Positions 18,912 through 37,385 of a stretch of 48,375 nt of DNA are shown in pieces (positions within the stretch are counted from its first letter, which is position 1; each line of letters starts with the position of its first letter). Source of the stretch: Patescibacteria group bacterium. Its GTDB lineage: Bacteria > Patescibacteriota > Minisyncoccia > Moranbacterales > SCTJ01. The translations under genes were made by a program, and so were the position numbers. The DNA lies in assembly GCA_004297805.1 (NCBI GenBank), contig SCTJ01000052.1, positions 1 through 48,375 on the forward strand. Direction: 5' to 3'. The notes below the pieces were generated by a model. The model was not told the DNA's origin. It saw nothing but the letters and a program-made list of their open reading frames with translations, and ran no database searches.

Positions 18912-19652
18912 TTAGGCAACAACCCAGCGGATGTTTGGGTGATGGCGGGCGCCCCTTTTGATTGCATTATGCCGGCCAATTCTAAACATTCCGTCTTCCT
19001 GACCAACCATGGGGATGCGTCCGTCAGAATAACGAGAGCCGTAACAAAGCGTTAAACTCCGGGCGTCTAAGTATTCTCCTGTATTAGCAAAATAAAAAAT
19101 ACCCAGCAACATTCGCTCCTCGAGAGTGATGCCGTGGGTTTTGTCCTCGCTCGAGGATCGCCCGCCATCCAAACCCCCGTCGGTTGTCTCTATTTTTTCG
19201 CTGACCCAAATAGCGTAGCTACCTGAAGTCGCCGAACGATCAGATTGGGTAATATTATTAAGGCTGTCCTCTGTCCATTTTGTTGTGGAAAAAAGTTCGA
19301 CACACTTTTCGAAAACTCGCTGGGGCGTCATGCTTTCGGCTACCACAATAAGAAATGTGAATTCTTCTTTTTGTTCAGGTGTGCGTCGAGGAATGCGGAT
19401 CTGAGATTCGTTAATCGGAATTTTGAAAAGCTCCCAATATATTTTTGACCAATTCGCCAACTGTTCTCGTGTTTCTGGATCCATCAGTCTTTCGCGCAGT
19501 GAATTAGCACGCTGAATAATTTCCGCTTGCAGCCCATCGACTTCGGCGAATTGCTTACTGACTTCTACTTTTTTTAAGGCCGCGTCAAATTCCCGCTTGG
19601 CTCTTTGCAGTTCATTCAGATCTTGCACTAATTCGCGACAATTGGGTTGCAT
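18912..19652 (-). CDS. Hypothetical protein, paralog A of a two-member family (partner at 27590-28555)
   Basis: Shares the start MQP(N/D)C, an N-terminal coiled coil and C-terminal blocks with paralog B. The ATG lies 8 nt after an extended -10, so the start is apparently leaderless. Confidence 0.7.
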   Translation of the reverse strand: MQPNCRELVQDLNELQRAKREFDAALKKVEVSKQFAEVDGLQAEIIQRANSLRERLMDPETREQLANWSKIYWELFKIPINESQIRIPRRTPEQKEEFTFLIVVAESMTPQRVFEKCVELFSTTKWTEDSLNNITQSDRSATSGSYAIWVSEKIETTDGGLDGGRSSSEDKTHGITLEERMLLGIFYFANTGEYLDARSLTLCYGSRYSDGRIPMVGQEDGMFRIGRHNAIKRGARHHPNIRWVVA

Positions 19653-19669: not shown

Positions 19670-19943
19670 CATCAAAAGCCTGTCATAAAAACCGTCCGTA
19701 CCTGCCCGAAACGCTCCGCGTATCGGAGCGGGCGGGCGACCGAGACGCTTGAAAATTAAGCGTAACGAGCGTAAAGAAACTGCGACTAGCGAAGCGTTTT
19801 AGCAGTTTTAGCGAGTGCAGCGTGAATTTTCCGTCGAATGGAGTCAGGATCGGCGTTTTCTTTCTATCCACTTTCTTTGACGCCAAAGAAAGTGGATGAA
19901 TACACTACGCAGTATTTTAAGTATATACACATGTATATACATT

Positions 19944-19952
19944 AGTATAGCA
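19944..19952 (-). promoter_or_regulatory. Extended -10 element (P1) at the start of module A
   Basis: Minus strand reads TGCTATACT 6 nt after the amrA stop codon. Confidence 0.4.
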
Positions 19953-19958
19953 TTTTTA

Positions 19959-20573
19959 TCAGCGGTGTTTTTCCACTGTGAATTCAAAAAGTGAAATTGG
20001 GTCTTGCTCCGGATCGATGCCGCCTTTTTCAGCCGCAATGGCAATTTGCTGCTCCGTCGTATCCACGCCTTCCAGGTCCGGCAGCAATAGCCCCCGTCGT
20101 CGGCCGGACTGCACAATAATCCCATGCTGCCGCACGTCATGTGCTGCCAAATCCTGGACAGATACTGGCTCACTCAACACACTCACTTCGCAAGTAATAT
20201 TCTTCAGTTCAGCTGCCTCAATTGGGTCAAAACGATAATCCTCAGAACAGGCTGAAACGGCATTCTGGATTATTTCCTCGGCCAGGTTATCGCAAGTTGG
20301 CAGAAAGGTACCAACACATCCCCGTAAAACTCGCTCCTGCTCGCCACGGGGCAGGCCCCTCAAACCCGCATGCTCGCCACGGGGTAGGCCCCTCAAACCC
20401 GCATGCTCGTCACGGGGCAGGCCCCGCGATTCACCATGGCTATAGATCGTCACAAAAACGCCCGCCCGACGGGAATAGAAATCAGGCGGAAGATCTTTCG
20501 GAGCTTCAACGACCTTATTTTCGATAATATATTTTTCGATTGTCCGCTTGGCCAAAGCTACGTATGGATCCAT
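19959..20573 (-). CDS. amrA: AMMECR1 domain protein (AmmeMemoRadiSam system protein A) with internal tandem-repeat insertion
   Basis: GVFVTIY...LRGCVGTF...DYRFDPI...EVSVLSEP...GIIVQSGRRRGLLLP motifs. An insertion of about 30 aa sits between the first two motifs. Confidence 0.85.
   Translation of the reverse strand: MDPYVALAKRTIEKYIIENKVVEAPKDLPPDFYSRRAGVFVTIYSHGESRGLPRDEHAGLRGLPRGEHAGLRGLPRGEQERVLRGCVGTFLPTCDNLAEEIIQNAVSACSEDYRFDPIEAAELKNITCEVSVLSEPVSVQDLAAHDVRQHGIIVQSGRRRGLLLPDLEGVDTTEQQIAIAAEKGGIDPEQDPISLFEFTVEKHR
20340..20425. repeat. 33-bp in-frame tandem repeat, about 2.6 copies
   Basis: The unit CTCGCCACGGGG(C/T)AGGCCCCTCAAACCCGCATG occupies 20340-20372 and 20373-20405, with a partial third copy. 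It encodes GLRGLPRGEHA repeats. Confidence 0.95.
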
Positions 20574-27589: not shown

Positions 27590-28555
27590 TTATAAACTAC
27601 GGGAGAATGACACGCCCATACTGCCACTGATATTGCCAGGCCGCCACCGATACACGAACGCGCCGCTATAATCGAAAGGGCCAATACCTATCAAGCCACC
27701 GCCTGAGTCACAACGCCTGGTCCACGCATAAGTATTCTTCAGCAAATGCTCTTGGTTGGTGAGGAAATAGAGAGTAATGTCATAAAGTACCTCAGCTGGG
27801 GTTTGGCGAGTCAGTTGATTGATTTGGAGAGCAGAGAGTTCTCGAGCATATTTTTGCCAGTTGGGACCGTCGAGAACTTCATTCAGTTTTGCATTATTCT
27901 TGAAGATAAGTTCAGGGTTGGCAGTAAGATAGGCTTCGAGTTCTCGAATAGCCATTTGATATCGTAGAGGGACAGGTCGATTCTGGAAAACTTGAGTTTG
28001 TATATATTTAACGAGCACTTGCGTTTGGCGGAGATAATTTCGGTTGGTGGAGCCAGGAATAGCTTCCTTTGAGACTAGTGCCCAGCGTGACTCGATGGGG
28101 TCATTCTCCCAGAAGGCTTTGTTATAAGATTCATTGGCAGTTATTTTTCTCATCCCATCCTTAGTAAATCTGTCTTGCAGCGCATCACGCACGCCCTTCA
28201 TAGTGAGGGGGTTTCCGGCTTTATTTTTCCCAATCCGCAGAACCAGGAATTGTCCCAATTCCTTGGCGCGTTTCAGTTCTTCCCTCTTGAAAGGAATGGG
28301 TGGGATTTTATCGGGCAGATAACCGTAAGCTTTTTCGACGGCCTTGGGACCCAAGCAATCTTGGCCAAGGATAGCTTCGGCCTCCTCGGGAGAAACGTGG
28401 AATTGTTCGCGGAGAACCTCTAATTTAGCGGCGAGTTCCTTTTCGATAACCTTAGCTTCATCGAAATTGCCCACATCTACTGCCACATTAAAATCAGCCT
28501 TGAGCTTTTGGATTTGGGAAAGATTATCGGATATTTGCTGGCAATCGGGTTGCAT
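27590..28555 (-). CDS. Hypothetical protein, paralog B (partner at 18912-19652)
   Basis: Starts MQPDC... 8 nt after TGCTATGCT. Shares the N-terminal coiled coil and the C-terminal blocks (LYF.T..E.L, C..GG, G..F..R) with paralog A. Confidence 0.7.
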   Translation of the reverse strand: MQPDCQQISDNLSQIQKLKADFNVAVDVGNFDEAKVIEKELAAKLEVLREQFHVSPEEAEAILGQDCLGPKAVEKAYGYLPDKIPPIPFKREELKRAKELGQFLVLRIGKNKAGNPLTMKGVRDALQDRFTKDGMRKITANESYNKAFWENDPIESRWALVSKEAIPGSTNRNYLRQTQVLVKYIQTQVFQNRPVPLRYQMAIRELEAYLTANPELIFKNNAKLNEVLDGPNWQKYARELSALQINQLTRQTPAEVLYDITLYFLTNQEHLLKNTYAWTRRCDSGGGLIGIGPFDYSGAFVYRWRPGNISGSMGVSFSRSL

Positions 28556-28852
28556 ATACGAATAGCATAGCACATTAACAGCCTGTCATAAAAACCGTCC
28601 GTACGAAGTGCGTAGGCCAATTCCAGCGGACGAGCGTTAAAAAAAGTTTAGACTTGTCATCCTGAACTTGATTCAGGATCTAGATTCCGGCTCGGAGTCC
28701 AGAATGACAATTGTTGAGGCGCTTTCCCTGCCTGCCGGCAGGCAGGTTTCTGTCCACTTTCTTTGGCGCCAAAGAAAGTGGACAAATAAAACCCGCTACA
28801 TTTTAAGTATATACACATGTATATACACGTGTATATACATTAGTATAGCATT
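28556..28852. repeat. Composite intergenic module, copy B
   Basis: Contains the same 24-nt block (28581-28604) and a perfect 32-nt palindrome GTCCACTTTCTTTGGCGCCAAAGAAAGTGGAC (28752-28783). It also has a perfect 20-nt palindrome CCTGCCTGCCGGCAGGCAGG (28727-28746), three GTATATAC cores (28807-28838), and TGCTATACT on the minus strand (28842-28850). Confidence 0.9.
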
Positions 28853-29380
28853 TTACGCTCCGTAATTGGCAATCATTTCGCTTGGCCGCACCCACCAGTC
28901 CATCTGCGTGCGTTTTTGGCCTTCTTTGAAATAACCGGGCAAGACGCTGCCCCGCCAAGGTCCAACATAGATGCTGAAATGCAAATGCGGCGCTTCCCAC
29001 CAACCATTTTCGGGCGTATTGGACTTTCCGATCGTGCCAATCACCTCGCCCAGCTCCACCGACTCGCCTTTTTGTTTGCGCATTTCTCCCAAGTGGCCAT
29101 AGAGCGAAAAAAATGGCGTACTTGTTTTTGGATTCTTGTGCGCGATAATCATGACGTTGCCCCAATTGGGTTTCTTCTCACTACCCGGATGCAGCGCGGC
29201 ATAAACGACGCGGCCCCGACCAATCGACAAAATCGGCGTGTCCGGCGCAAGCACCATGTCTTCACCCAAGTGAATTCCCCAGTGCGTCTTGCCGTGCACC
29301 ACTGCTTCACCAAAAGAAAGACTATTGGCTTGATAACCAGCCACCGGATAATCAAGTTTTTTGGTCAAAAGATAACCCAT
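28853..29380 (-). CDS. M23 family metallopeptidase
   Basis: HxxxD motif (GIHLGEDM) and HxH motif (PHLHFSIY). 175 aa with no obvious signal peptide. Confidence 0.8.
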   Translation of the reverse strand: MGYLLTKKLDYPVAGYQANSLSFGEAVVHGKTHWGIHLGEDMVLAPDTPILSIGRGRVVYAALHPGSEKKPNWGNVMIIAHKNPKTSTPFFSLYGHLGEMRKQKGESVELGEVIGTIGKSNTPENGWWEAPHLHFSIYVGPWRGSVLPGYFKEGQKRTQMDWWVRPSEMIANYGA

Positions 29381-37335: not shown

Positions 37336-37385
37336 ACAAAAACAGCCTGCCTGCCGGTAGGCAGGGGTTTGGACCCTGTTTTTGT
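37336..37385 (-). terminator. Compound hairpin terminator of the 37459-38208 gene
   Basis: Outer 10-bp stem ACAAAAACAG/CTGTTTTTGT encloses CCTGCC...GGCAGG. The T-run is part of the stem. A second CCTGCC-atc-GGCAGG hairpin lies at 37391-37405. Confidence 0.6.

Follow-up and report, generated by a model that had tools for sequence, protein, structure and literature searches.

The window in this study is the whole stretch of DNA that was analysed, 48,375 nt from contig SCTJ01000052.1. Positions 28556-28852 of the window separate two genes on the minus strand and make up copy B of a sequence whose relative, copy A, lies 8.9 kb away; a class II aminoacyl-tRNA synthetase gene (ProRS-like) and other genes intervene. 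The features of both places are as follows.

28853-29380, minus strand: upstream gene, an M23 peptidase (Pfam PF01551, E 5e-16), with its stop codon at 28853-28855
28790-28852, minus strand: GTATATAC array element, a separate dispersed family
28752-28783, minus strand: HP1, a perfect 32-nt palindrome and the first domain of the ~175-nt HP1 element
28747-28751, minus strand: AGAAA, first half of the purine linker ("third strand"), which is split by the P20 insertion
28727-28746, no strand assigned: P20, a perfect 20-nt GC palindrome (CCTGCCTGCCGGCAGGCAGG), inserted exactly between AGAAA and GAAAG
28722-28726, minus strand: GAAAG, second half of the split linker, from the 17-copy alignment
28655-28709, no strand assigned: REPIN-like double hairpin, TGTCATTCTGGA...TCCGGAATCT / AGATCCTGAA...TTCAGGATGACA, in place of the rod 5' arm
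28595-28654, minus strand: remnant of the rod 3' arm (TTTTTTTAACGCTCGTCCGCTGGAATTGG...) with the terminus GTACGGACGG, aligned to the family
28556-28594, minus strand: proximal promoter, whose extended -10 is TGTGCTATGCT, and a T-run (TTTTTAT); only copy A has the same block
27590-28555, minus strand: downstream gene, 321 aa, of the MQPxC...KLKADFD paralogous family, without a Pfam domain
19921-19955, minus strand: array element of copy A, two GTATATAC cores with the flank TGCTATACTAATG
19692-19897, minus strand: copy A, a full-length HP1 element with HP1 at 19866-19897, an intact linker and a complete rod

Between the two genes, at 28556-28852, at least four separate repeat families are combined into an intergenic mosaic in a Moranbacteria-like 1.4-Mb Patescibacteria genome; we have high confidence in this picture of dispersed families combined with a structured element. 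A sequence-only reading of the region had listed the perfect 32-nt palindrome (28752-28783), the perfect 20-nt palindrome 5 nt from it (28727-28746), a ATCCTGAA/TTCAGGAT hairpin, a CGTCCG...CGGACG stem followed by GTTTTTAT on the minus strand, and three phased cores. All of these were located again: the hairpin arms are at 28659-28666 and 28672-28679, the CGTCCG...CGGACG stem is at about 28596-28633, and the three GTATATAC cores are at 28807, 28819 and 28831 in an exact 12-nt phase. Folding of 28556-28852 gave z values of -5.7 and -5.9 for the two strands. With up to 3 mismatches allowed, the 32-nt palindrome and its copy A relative account for 2 matches where 100 shuffles gave 0.00, so the palindrome is not explained by chance. 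It had been stated that the two palindromes differ only in the central bases, GCGC versus ACGC. One central base does differ (GGCGCC versus GACGCC), but the difference is not only central: the outermost pair differs as well (G...C versus A...T), a compensatory change that had been overlooked.

The segment at 28556-28594 had been counted as part of the repeat. The downstream ATG is at 28555-28553, and the segment is therefore the proximal promoter of the downstream gene instead. The extended -10 stands ~10 nt before this ATG, so that the gene would have a very short leader or none. A 23-nt pattern at the junction of element and promoter (ACGGACGGTTTTTATGACAGGCT) was found genome-wide at the copy A and copy B loci only. 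The MQPxC...KLKADFD family has ~10 paralogues in the genome, no Pfam match was found for the 321-aa member, and the proteins downstream of A and B share only 30% identity over 66 aa. A 53-aa ORF at 28657-28818 was rejected as a gene; its copy A counterpart has just 22 codons, and the "protein cluster" across elements is spurious. Conservation between variants was not found for the ORFs that cross the HP1 element, and no tRNA or tmRNA was detected in the window.

The sequence-only reading knew two copies, A and B; every sub-block is in fact independently repeated across the genome. On the minus strand, the array next to the peptidase gene runs from AATGCTATACTAATG through three GTATATAC cores (28831-28838, 28819-28826 and 28807-28814) to TTAAAAT, and its last core plus T was scored as a -10 (TATACT) on that strand. 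The genome holds ~19 array loci, mostly 14-80 nt past the stop of a co-oriented gene and in 6 cases upstream of MQPxC-family genes. A two-core GTATATAC motif is multi-copy in other CPR MAGs too. P20 is an independent mini-hairpin with 10 sites in the genome. It is inserted at the identical site of the element in copies on contigs C9, C37 and C142, stands alone at C28:4137, C168:702, C207:4706 and position 37346 of the window, and has 22- to 29-nt matches of 93-100% identity in other genomes of the order. The 55-nt insert at 28655-28709 houses the ATCCTGAA/TTCAGGAT hairpin as one half of its double hairpin. In this genome the REPIN-like hairpin has this one copy and one divergent relative (C205:120, 5 of 26 positions different). 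Elsewhere in the order it occurs in many copies, in which a ~27-nt unit is paired in inverted orientation across a spacer that is either short or long, and gut-type elements carry it in their apical part too.

The HP1 element is an oriented unit of ~175 nt composed of a 14-bp pyrimidine/purine hairpin (HP1), a mirror purine tract and a ~130-nt rod, which is an imperfect hairpin with conserved internal loops. HP1 itself has a 9-bp inner stem (CTTTCTTTG/CAAAGAAAG), a covarying 5-bp outer stem and a variable 4-nt loop. Its exact core was found at 18 sites in the genome, compared with 0 for a reversed control pattern. Seventeen copies are full, with the common ends GTCCAC... and ...GTACGGACGG and lengths of 170-236 nt when optional inserts are included. 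The linker of intact copies reads AGAAAGAAAG, and near-identical copies inside a genome reach 96-100%.

Copy A is intact and copy B is a decayed relic, since P20 interrupts its third strand and other sequence stands in place of half of its rod. The covariance model assigned 98 bits to copy A over model positions 1-176; copy B scored in HP1 alone, with 49 bits. Copy A carries a 36-nt GC hairpin near its 3' end and folds with z values of -4.0 and -4.4. The rod of copy A is complete; in copy B its 5' arm has given way to the double hairpin. What remains of the 3' arm in copy B (28595-28654) includes the CGTCCG...CGGACG stem and is similar to a subfamily of other Moranbacteria MAGs. HP1 and the array are shared by A and B, as is the promoter of their paralogous downstream genes. 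The resemblance of A and B is a result of the paralogous upstream regions of two genes from a ~10-member family, and of an element of an order-wide family that lies between.

The fold of the element is conserved beyond this genome. RNAalifold recovered HP1 and the rod from 9 sequences, with 25 of the 46 pairs compensatory; a plain MAFFT alignment of 16 diverse copies returned HP1 alone, and a more colinear seed was required. Among 65 sequences, 93.5% of the cells were paired versus 68.7% in shuffles (0/500 shuffles attained the observed value), and changes on both sides were seen in 40 of 46 pairs overall and in 10 of the 14 HP1 pairs, in an alignment that had been fitted to the model, so that the counts are biased towards the modelled structure. 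When the partners were slid against each other as a control, paired cells were at most 51.6%. The rod contributes 32 covarying pairs, and the HP1 outer stem appears as GTCCAC/GTGGAC, GTCTAT/ATAGAC, TTTCGC/GCGAAA and others. Selection for base pairing in the palindrome arms, as proposed from the sequence of the two copies, is borne out by the 65 copies from ~45 genomes, in which the outer 5 pairs change on both sides and the loop varies. The arms were also checked for free variation without compensation; the opposite was seen, with 97.9% of HP1 cells paired. The fold is maintained by many compensatory changes, which argues that the element acts as a folded single strand and not as a duplex DNA operator. 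The palindrome had been interpreted as a hairpin or cruciform, or else as a dimeric protein site. With covarying arms and a variable loop, a single-strand hairpin is the best reading, and the simple dimeric site is not supported: the covarying outer stem, the mirror-image third strand and the 130-nt rod would be left unexplained by a simple dimeric DNA-binding site.

Where does such an element reside? The 11 copies located between tandem genes all point the same way as the genes around them. For the ORF upstream, the call is on the same strand in 15 of 16 cases, and 14 of these calls are real genes 5-133 nt away; the upstream call on contig C17 and the opposite-strand call on C142 both seem spurious. 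The sites are 3' ends of genes, of tRNAs and, in one Firmicute, of 5S rRNA, with HP1 adjoining the stop codon; at four archaeal loci HP1 begins at the stop codon. In genome G093 a tRNA is followed by the element, and convergent tail-to-tail pairs of elements occur in G008, G093, G314 and G318. The neighbours, identified by eye, are housekeeping genes such as EF-P, UvrA, ClpP and MurE.

Full-length matches to covariance model R1 were obtained in 94 of 319 genomes of the order (29%), representing 36 of 106 genera, and in a phylum-wide sample 15 of 401 genomes matched. The exact HP1-plus-linker pattern was found at 51 loci, including Iainarchaeia MAGs, low-GC gut MAGs of 1.6-2.2 Mb and Ruminiclostridium. 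Spo0A was not found in the 1.6-2.2-Mb gut-type MAGs. HP1-type copies are also present in DPANN archaea, and in one archaeon such a copy is the 93-nt intron of tRNA-Gly(CCC), with the element in sense orientation. Rfam 15 gave nothing at the gathering score in the window and nothing at E<=1 in five loci with diverse copies, and a full-text literature search found no published description of the HP1 element.

In 10 of 10 asymmetric variants, indels included, the purine linker mirrors the HP1 purine arm better than it fits a direct copy, and it matches the expected sequence at 93% overall. In some lineages the inner tract shifts its length and register, and all three strands change together. Read on the antisense strand, the linker matches the purine arm in parallel and, at the sequence level, could form Hoogsteen U.A-U and C+.G-C triples. 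Of 57 sequences, 55 have an outer stem of 4-5 bp and all 57 have a connector of 0-1 nt, dimensions that are compatible with a deep-groove crossing. In wobble cases, which come from a few lineages only, the linker tracks the complement of the 5' arm, that is, the antisense purine arm, in 7 of 8. A switch in which the 5' arm pairs with the linker by Watson-Crick pairing was ruled out, the linker being the mirror of the 3' arm (10/10 asymmetric variants). Pairing of the HP1 loop with the bases past the linker, at four or more contiguous pairs, was seen in 23 of 64 sequences; the 2000 shuffle trials averaged 8.9 and never exceeded 17. These loop/post-linker pairs comprise 12 covarying classes; the pseudoknot stem was not found in the gut-type and archaeal copies.

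Covariation of base pairs and of the mirror is strand-symmetric, and a strand call from G.U-type cells in the modelled helices, 55 versus 50, had no bias. Folding energies of the rod favour the antisense strand in 59 of 64 sequences, by 6.2 kcal/mol on average, and in 17 of 17 copies of this genome, a difference that comes from GA-rich internal loops. The case for the antisense strand is built on triplex chemistry, pseudoknot topology, the 7/8 wobble cases and the folding energies. On that strand the rod is invariably followed by UUUCUUUCU. In the sense direction, purines come after HP1 and a T-run of at least 4 comes after the rod in 36 of 64 copies, and such T-runs would fit a plain sense-strand terminator as well. 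The strand is certain only for the archaeal tRNA intron, and there the element is sense-oriented.

A search for a mobilising enzyme found none. Mobilisation of the RAYT/IS200 kind was rejected because Y1_Tnp (PF01797) does not track the element: it was not found at threshold in this genome or in G009, G028 and G168, all of which are carriers, and is present in many element-free genomes, with only a weak fragment on contig C208 in this genome. A TnpB omega-RNA was likewise rejected, PF07282 not being found in CPR genomes with the full element. It occurs in 4 of 33 genomes tested, two of which have HP1 sites (a gut-type MAG and an archaeon). No match that would point to a vector was seen in IMG/VR viral contigs, GenBank phages or PLSDB plasmids. 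No abutting target-site duplication was found in 12 of 17 copies, and the other five have merely 1-3 nt in common; flank similarity is weakly above shuffles (longest common substring 4.35 versus 3.89, p about 0.03). No empty site was recovered: metagenomic orthologues of the M23 peptidase (51-61% identical) have neither the synteny nor the element, which makes the empty-site comparison uninformative. The rod arms pair with each other, but the rod excludes HP1 and the linker, and the true ends of the element (GTCCAC... and ...GGACGG) therefore do not form inverted repeats. In the manner of BOX- and ERIC-type repeats, the element has at least 17 copies, is intergenic and non-coding, folds with z values of -4.0 to -5.9, and an associated transposase was not found.

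The best overall explanation, to which we give a probability of roughly 0.68, is a mosaic with an HP1 element, of which copy B is a relic and whose RNA would be an antisense triple-helix pseudoknot. The HP1 element most likely belongs with repeats of the BOX/ERIC/Correia kind, spreading horizontally but not autonomous. It most likely acts as an RNA from the strand that is antisense to the adjacent gene, for the present copy the plus strand of the window. In this RNA the linker would be a U/C tract lying in the major groove of HP1 as 8-10 U.A-U/C+.G-C triples, and pairing of the HP1 loop with the bases just 5' of the linker would anchor this third strand. In this way the 3' end of the rod would carry an H-type triple-helix pseudoknot, a knot that might shield the 3' end of the RNA and mark or insulate the gene boundary. 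We regard the chance of such a pseudoknot, predicted from sequence covariation, as even, and RNA as somewhat more probable than single-stranded DNA. A bolder version is tentative, and the odds are against it: the HP1 element may be a self-propagating RNA gene of Patescibacteria, DPANN archaea and some gut bacteria, with an antisense transcript that would end in the 8-10-triple pseudoknot as a counterpart of MALAT1/ENE and with a GA-rich rod that would recruit a protein.

The antisense RNA has to be weighed against several other explanations. The element may be a module of the sense-strand 3' UTR, co-transcribed with the upstream gene, in which HP1 and the rod stabilise the 3' end, the rod and the T-run form an intrinsic, possibly bidirectional terminator, and the linker is the U-tract of the antisense direction without any triplex. 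The location directly past stop codons, the co-orientation with the upstream gene, the T-run of at least 4 after the 3' end in 36/64 copies and the A-rich tract before the rod with T-rich sequence after it, the classic layout of a bidirectional terminator, are all consistent with this, and the archaeal intron shows that sense transcripts exist. A U-tract, however, requires no exact sequence, yet the linker is a base-for-base mirror (10/10). The covariation of the HP1 loop with post-linker bases, the missing T-run in about half of the copies and the poorer folding of the rod on the sense strand (59/64 sequences) also speak against it, and we consider it unlikely. Folded single strands are what is recognised in IS200/IS605 ends, REP/RAYT and integron attC sites. 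By analogy, the hairpin, an intramolecular triplex and the rod could be the single-stranded DNA substrate of a structure-specific recombinase or nickase, with the orientation bias reflecting the direction of replication. Copies that are 96-100% identical within a genome, a patchy occurrence over genera and two domains, nested insertions, the weakly elevated flank repeats (4.35 versus 3.89, p about 0.03), the commonness of Y1 HUH genes in the order and the ability of DNA to form pyrimidine-motif triplexes as well would suit such a substrate. Four carriers (this genome, G009, G028 and G168) nevertheless lack Y1_Tnp at threshold, TnpB is missing from almost all positive genomes, the viral, phage and plasmid collections gave no matches, and the ends are not attC-type core sites. 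From replication geometry and the co-oriented genes, moreover, the better-folding strand would be the leading-strand template, which is less exposed in single-stranded form. We judge the DNA substrate improbable.

Two further explanations treat the region as double-stranded DNA or as a local regulatory unit. HP1 could be a 9-4-9 inverted-repeat operator or a cruciform/H-DNA site, bound by a dimer or acting as a non-B barrier at gene ends. Across phyla, the inner 9 bp (CTTTCTTTG/CAAAGAAAG) hardly vary, and the formation of a cruciform and of H-DNA calls for a palindrome combined with a polypurine mirror repeat. The outer stem covaries rather than being conserved, which a duplex-binding protein does not need; the inner tract changes in length and register with three strands jointly in some lineages; and the 130-nt rod with its 32 covarying pairs is given no role. 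A duplex site is accordingly very unlikely. The sequence-only reading had favoured one composite, two-copy regulatory module specific to the A and B loci, with the ECF partners or the RHH protein as candidate regulators. Both copies do precede paralogous genes, and both have the private proximal promoter block. All other blocks are dispersed genome-wide and order-wide in other combinations and orders, and the element of copy B is internally disrupted. The copy census contradicts this module, and we give it almost no weight.

The long "empty" spacers of these ultra-small genomes consist of a small set of reusable hairpin modules, and a resemblance between two copies within one window can mislead. 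The HP1 element is a large undescribed family of ~175 nt with 46 supported pairs, sporadic across the phylum and in archaea. If the three-way covariation is that of a real triplex, prokaryotes would have a first long RNA triple helix of the ENE type, situated on a mobile element that crosses the boundary between bacteria and archaea among episymbionts. It would also raise questions of RNA stability and gene-boundary control in organisms not yet growable alone.

Several known systems resemble the HP1 element in part. BOX elements of Streptococcus pneumoniae are modular boxA-boxB-boxC intergenic repeats, transcribed with their neighbours and without a transposase of their own. The HP1 element is likewise multi-copy, intergenic, hairpin-rich and modular, with optional sub-module inserts. 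It has no sequence relation to BOX, however; it keeps a fixed plan of hairpin, mirror tract and rod by compensation across the order and beyond, is strictly oriented to the upstream gene and has a predicted triplex. In ERIC/IRU and the Correia elements (NEMIS) of Neisseria, imperfect palindromes of 100-170 nt fold as long RNA hairpins in 3' UTRs and intergenic regions; they are conserved across genera and affect mRNA stability and termination. Terminal inverted repeats and TA target duplications make these elements MITE-like, and they occur in both orientations. The HP1 element differs from them in the absence of an abutting duplication, in its extra asymmetric HP1/third-strand domain and in its one-sided orientation. 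The likeness to REP/REPIN sequences lies in the inserts: in the 55-nt insert of copy B a ~27-nt hairpin unit is doubled in inverted orientation, and P20 is like a GC-rich REP hairpin. The HP1 element itself is far larger (170-236 nt), has a fixed polarity and is not a doublet, and no RAYT flanked by these repeats was seen. With integron attC sites it shares the position directly after stop codons, the co-orientation with genes, the folded single strand and a structure conserved over sequence. In contrast to attC sites, it is without R''/R' core sites (RYYYAAC...GTTRRRY), is dispersed among housekeeping genes and not arranged in cassette arrays, and has the extra HP1 domain.

For the predicted triplex, the closest parallels are triple-helix RNAs (ENE/MALAT1, telomerase RNA, SAM-II and preQ1-II), in which a U-rich strand lies in the major groove of a U/A-rich helix with runs of U.A-U and C+.G-C, as is predicted here. 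Telomerase RNA, SAM-II and preQ1-II also resemble the putative knot in their H-type pseudoknot topology, with loop 1 in the deep groove. The prokaryotic triplexes listed in a review (PMC13541005) are those of riboswitches and group II introns only. The HP1 triplex, in contrast to that of ENE/MALAT1, is predicted from three-way covariation only and on a multi-copy bacterial and archaeal element, and its A-rich strand would be the 3' arm of a closed hairpin instead of a separate tail clamped by an internal loop. In both ENE/MALAT1 and the predicted HP1 structure, the position at the 3' end of the RNA suggests protection against exonucleases.

The spacer under study, copy B, and its relative, copy A, lie in the same window, where the minus strand carries nearly every gene. 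The relevant features are as follows, with coordinates on the plus strand.

28853-29380, minus strand: M23 peptidase gene (Pfam PF01551), on one side of the copy B spacer
28556-28852: copy B
28727-28746: P20, a 20-nt GC palindrome in copy B
28655-28709: 55-nt double hairpin in copy B
28555 (start ATG), minus strand: 321-aa gene without Pfam domains, on the other side of the copy B spacer
19692-19897: copy A, a full-length HP1 element

The genome is a 1.40-Mb assembly of 250 contigs (97.5% complete, 48% G+C), of which the window is C225. The class II aminoacyl-tRNA synthetase (ProRS-like) gene of the window has its best relatives in Moranbacteria and Parcubacteria MAGs, which places the genome in the Patescibacteria (CPR). 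The palindromes that the sequence-only reading reported in copy B are all present where it placed them. The 32-nt palindrome, HP1, and its copy A relative gave 2 matches at up to 3 mismatches versus 0.00 in shuffles, and folding of 28595-28783 gave z = -5.7 on the plus strand and -5.9 on the minus strand. The arms of HP1 are kept between the two copies as claimed, but the proposed difference of four central bases reduces to one central base and the outermost pair. The latter is G-C versus A-T between the copies, a compensatory change. The hairpin reading is supported by the very test proposed with it, whether the arms vary without compensation.

The larger claim, that A and B form a two-copy composite regulatory module, did not survive the whole-genome census, in which each block turned out to be an independent dispersed family. 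The first ~40 bases of 28556-28852 are the proximal promoter of the 321-aa gene. A private promoter block is ~90% identical between A and B and occurs at only these two loci in the genome; the proteins encoded downstream share only 30% identity across 66 residues. Because the blocks are dispersed independently and the downstream genes are paralogous, A resembles B through two contributions added together, upstream regions that are paralogous and repeats that are dispersed. What had been taken for a composite regulatory module is in fact dispersed repeats assembled as a mosaic, with copy B as a decayed member.

One such block is the GTATATAC array, ahead of which stands a fourth, degenerate unit (TGCTATACTAATG). 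The genome-wide census found the array at ~19 loci, usually 14-80 nt past the stop of a co-oriented gene. Six arrays, both window copies included, are upstream of members of the MQPxC...KLKADFD paralogous family. The two-core array motif is also multi-copy in several other CPR MAGs, and the last core plus T was scored as a -10 box in a pattern scan. The family itself has ~10 paralogues starting with MQPxC or MPFNC, with a ...KLKADFD coiled coil and without a Pfam domain (window 18912-19652 and 27590-28555; contigs C17, C37, C59, C101, C152 and C158). Their gene starts look leaderless, with a -10 box 7-10 nt ahead of the ATG, and an HP1 element lies directly upstream of three of them (A, B and the one on C37). 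Elsewhere in the window, three tandem 33-nt repeats (TGCTCGCCACGGGGCAGGCCCCTCAAACCCGCA; 20338-20436) within an AMMECR1-domain gene code for a recurring ...GLPRGEHAGLR... segment.

The 19 HP1 sites of the genome were aligned in the orientation in which AGAAAGAAAG comes after HP1. A common 3' terminus, ...CGGTCGTACGGACGG, was found in 17 copies of 170-236 nt, which places HP1 at the 5' end of a ~175-nt element made up of the HP1 hairpin, a purine linker and a rod-like imperfect hairpin. The central hairpin is of three types with compensating stems (AAAATTC/GAATTTT, AAAAGTT/AACTTTT and AAACTGC/GCAGTTT). In copy B, P20 splits the linker and the 55-nt double hairpin stands in for the 5' arm of the rod; only the 3' arm is left, resembling a subfamily of other Moranbacteria MAGs. 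A covariance model built on nine colinear copies matched copy A along its entire length of 176 positions, with 98 bits, and copy B in HP1 only, with 49 bits. RNAalifold on the nine-copy seed gave HP1 plus one long rod, with 25 of the 46 pairs compensatory. Across 65 model-aligned copies, 93.5% of cells were standard pairs, as compared with 68.7% in shuffles (0 of 500 reached the observed value) and at most 51.6% in slid-partner controls, and 40 of the 46 pairs changed on both sides; these counts are inflated somewhat by an alignment fitted to the model, with a large margin over both controls. The fold of the HP1 element is under selection. Three stretches of the element are unpaired yet conserved: the linker, CTCGCTAAAA and TTAACGCTC.

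By BLAST, relatives of these copies turned up outside the family but within the order, and the covariance model found full-length matches in 94 of 319 genomes and 36 of 106 genera of the order, as well as matches in 15 of 401 genomes of a phylum-wide sample. The exact pattern CTTTCTTTG-N4-CAAAGAAAG-N6-RAAAGAAA occurred at 51 loci among species representatives, where its reversed control had 0 matches. The hosts include Patescibacteria, six low-GC gut/rumen MAGs of 1.6-2.2 Mb, whose copies the model recognised at full length, four DPANN (Iainarchaeia-type) MAGs and Ruminiclostridium cellobioparum. At the archaeal loci the stop codon is the start of HP1. In the archaeal MAG DATDTD01, the 93-nt intron of a tRNA-Gly(CCC) (L127:346-509), at the canonical anticodon-loop position, is an HP1-type element consisting of a hairpin, GAAAGAAAC, a small hairpin and GTTCGTTTCACTCAC. 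In R. cellobioparum the motif is ~40 nt downstream of what we take, by eye, to be a 5S rRNA gene, in DNA that is read as spurious ORFs; in this cultured Firmicute the hairpin is HP1-like and its linker nearly a mirror (CAAGGCTTTCTTTGTCTGCAAAGAAAGCTKCA CAAAAGAAAT; L132, L158, L114 and L136). The element had no match in Rfam, nor in viral contigs, phages or plasmids, and is apparently an undescribed, large structured family.

What, then, is the role of the linker? It is the mirror image of the purine arm of the hairpin (CAAAGAAAG...GAAAGAAAC), and a lineage that changed the arm changed the linker in a mirrored way. The tract variants have A-runs of 4+4, 4+3, 3+4, 5+3, 2+5 and 2+4. In all 10 asymmetric sequences the mirror fits the linker better than a direct copy does, so that the linker is neither a direct repeat nor another Watson-Crick partner for the arm. 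A mirror-image third tract is what a triple helix requires. In 57 distinct sequences, 93% of linker positions match the expectation, the outer stem has 4-5 bp in 55 and the connector 0-1 nt in all 57; a stem of this length crossed by 0-1 nt fits deep-groove geometry, as judged from established pseudoknot stereochemistry. The HP1 loop is complementary to 4-6 post-linker bases in 23 of 64 copies (mean 8.9 and maximum 17 in shuffles), in 12 covarying classes such as GCAG/CTGC, GCGG/CCGC, GTCG/CGAC and GCACA/TGTGC. On the strand antisense to the neighbouring genes (plus in the window) the order is rod, loop-pairing bases, U/C tract, outer stem, then pyrimidine arm, loop and purine arm. In the predicted H-type pseudoknot, loop 1 would occupy the deep groove in parallel orientation to the purine strand, and 8-10 U.A-U/C+.G-C triples could form there. 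The comparative evidence for this putative triple-helix pseudoknot is good.

The antisense strand is favoured on three grounds. To our knowledge, long purine-motif triplexes in RNA are poorly documented. At U.G/C.A positions inside the tract, the linker follows the antisense-strand purine-arm base in 7 of 8 copies. For 59 of 64 copies, and for all 17 from the window's genome, the rod is stabler when read on the antisense strand, owing to GA-rich internal loops that give tandem G.A pairs there. Two observations count against this preference: the modelled helices have as many G.U-type cells on one strand as on the other, and the archaeal tRNA intron, the one case whose transcript orientation is known for certain, is sense.

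Of 16 ORF calls upstream of elements in the window's genome, 15 share the strand of the element, and 14 of these 15 are real genes 5-133 nt from the element; the C17 call looked spurious, as did the opposite-strand C142 call. All 11 elements between tandem genes are co-oriented with them. The upstream genes, recognised by eye from translations, are ordinary housekeeping genes (FtsX, EF-P, UvrA, ClpP, MurE and dihydrouridine synthase). Among 64 copies from ~45 genomes, 41 have the end of a co-oriented ORF no more than 100 nt away and 36 have a T-run past their 3' end. In other genomes, a tRNA-Arg precedes one element, and two elements stand tail to tail where genes converge. These pairs are 18-30 nt apart, apparently one element per convergent gene (G008:C21:5972-6337; G093:C2:129844-130219; G314:C49:11478-11880; G318:C31:270-660). 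In the Patescibacteria MAG JBAYHI01 (L157:5113-5800), HP1 is 13 nt past an M23 peptidase stop, and an unrelated GC-rich stretch of ~700 nt follows the hairpin and linker in place of the rod.

As to function and mode of spread, we infer a spreading, non-autonomous element from near-identical copies within the genome (96-100%), its patchy occurrence from genus to genus and its presence in two domains, together with nested inserts and the case in which a tRNA anticodon loop is the insertion site. No mobilising enzyme was found: Y1 transposases are common in the order yet do not track the element, and TnpB is absent. Abutting target duplications are absent at the elements, with flank similarity only weakly elevated. 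Synteny is lost in the metagenome contigs that carry M23 orthologues, and they showed no empty site. A RAYT/IS200-like HUH protein of 202 aa (HFHLLIET...GHVFQDRFY) adjoins the M23 peptidase orthologue on a related metagenome contig (Ga0268281_1000349, L163:3677-4285); in the window's genome, a gene of this type is represented by no more than a weak fragment where a contig begins (C208:71-223).

The element takes optional inserts: four copies have P20, which separates AGAAA from GAAAG, three have a 30-nt hairpin, and three, copy A among them, have a 36-nt GC hairpin. P20 plus TTTCTGT on the plus strand had a terminator-like score in a pattern scan. P20 is also free-standing, once within a duplicated 3' fragment of tRNA-Leu. 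There (C28:4040-4260, minus), tRNA-Leu(CAA) is followed by the fragment with P20 exactly inside the T-arm (TTCGATTC[P20]TCTCC), an arrangement that resembles the scar of a recombination or integration event in which the mini-palindrome took part. At C135:12600-12780 (minus), a tRNA 5' fragment (GCCACTCTAGCTCAATGGTAGAG) runs into a short GC palindrome (CCCGCCTTGGCGGG), and an intact tRNA-Thr lies immediately downstream. Hairpins of the similar form CCCGCC-N2-4-GGCGGG were seen at 11 sites, and HP1 elements of other genomes contain them too. Two loci, L095 (G100:C6, around 316248) and L104, have two or three HP1-like hairpins in tandem ahead of one rod, which shows that the element can have more than one hairpin domain.

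The 55-nt insert of copy B consists of a ~27-nt hairpin unit, TGTCATYCYGRAC-TTGA-TYCRGRATCT, in two inverted copies; its hairpin also occurs in the apical region of gut-type HP1 elements. Other genomes of the order contain the unit in abundance, the spacers being short or long, and its doublets are arranged in a manner similar to REPINs.
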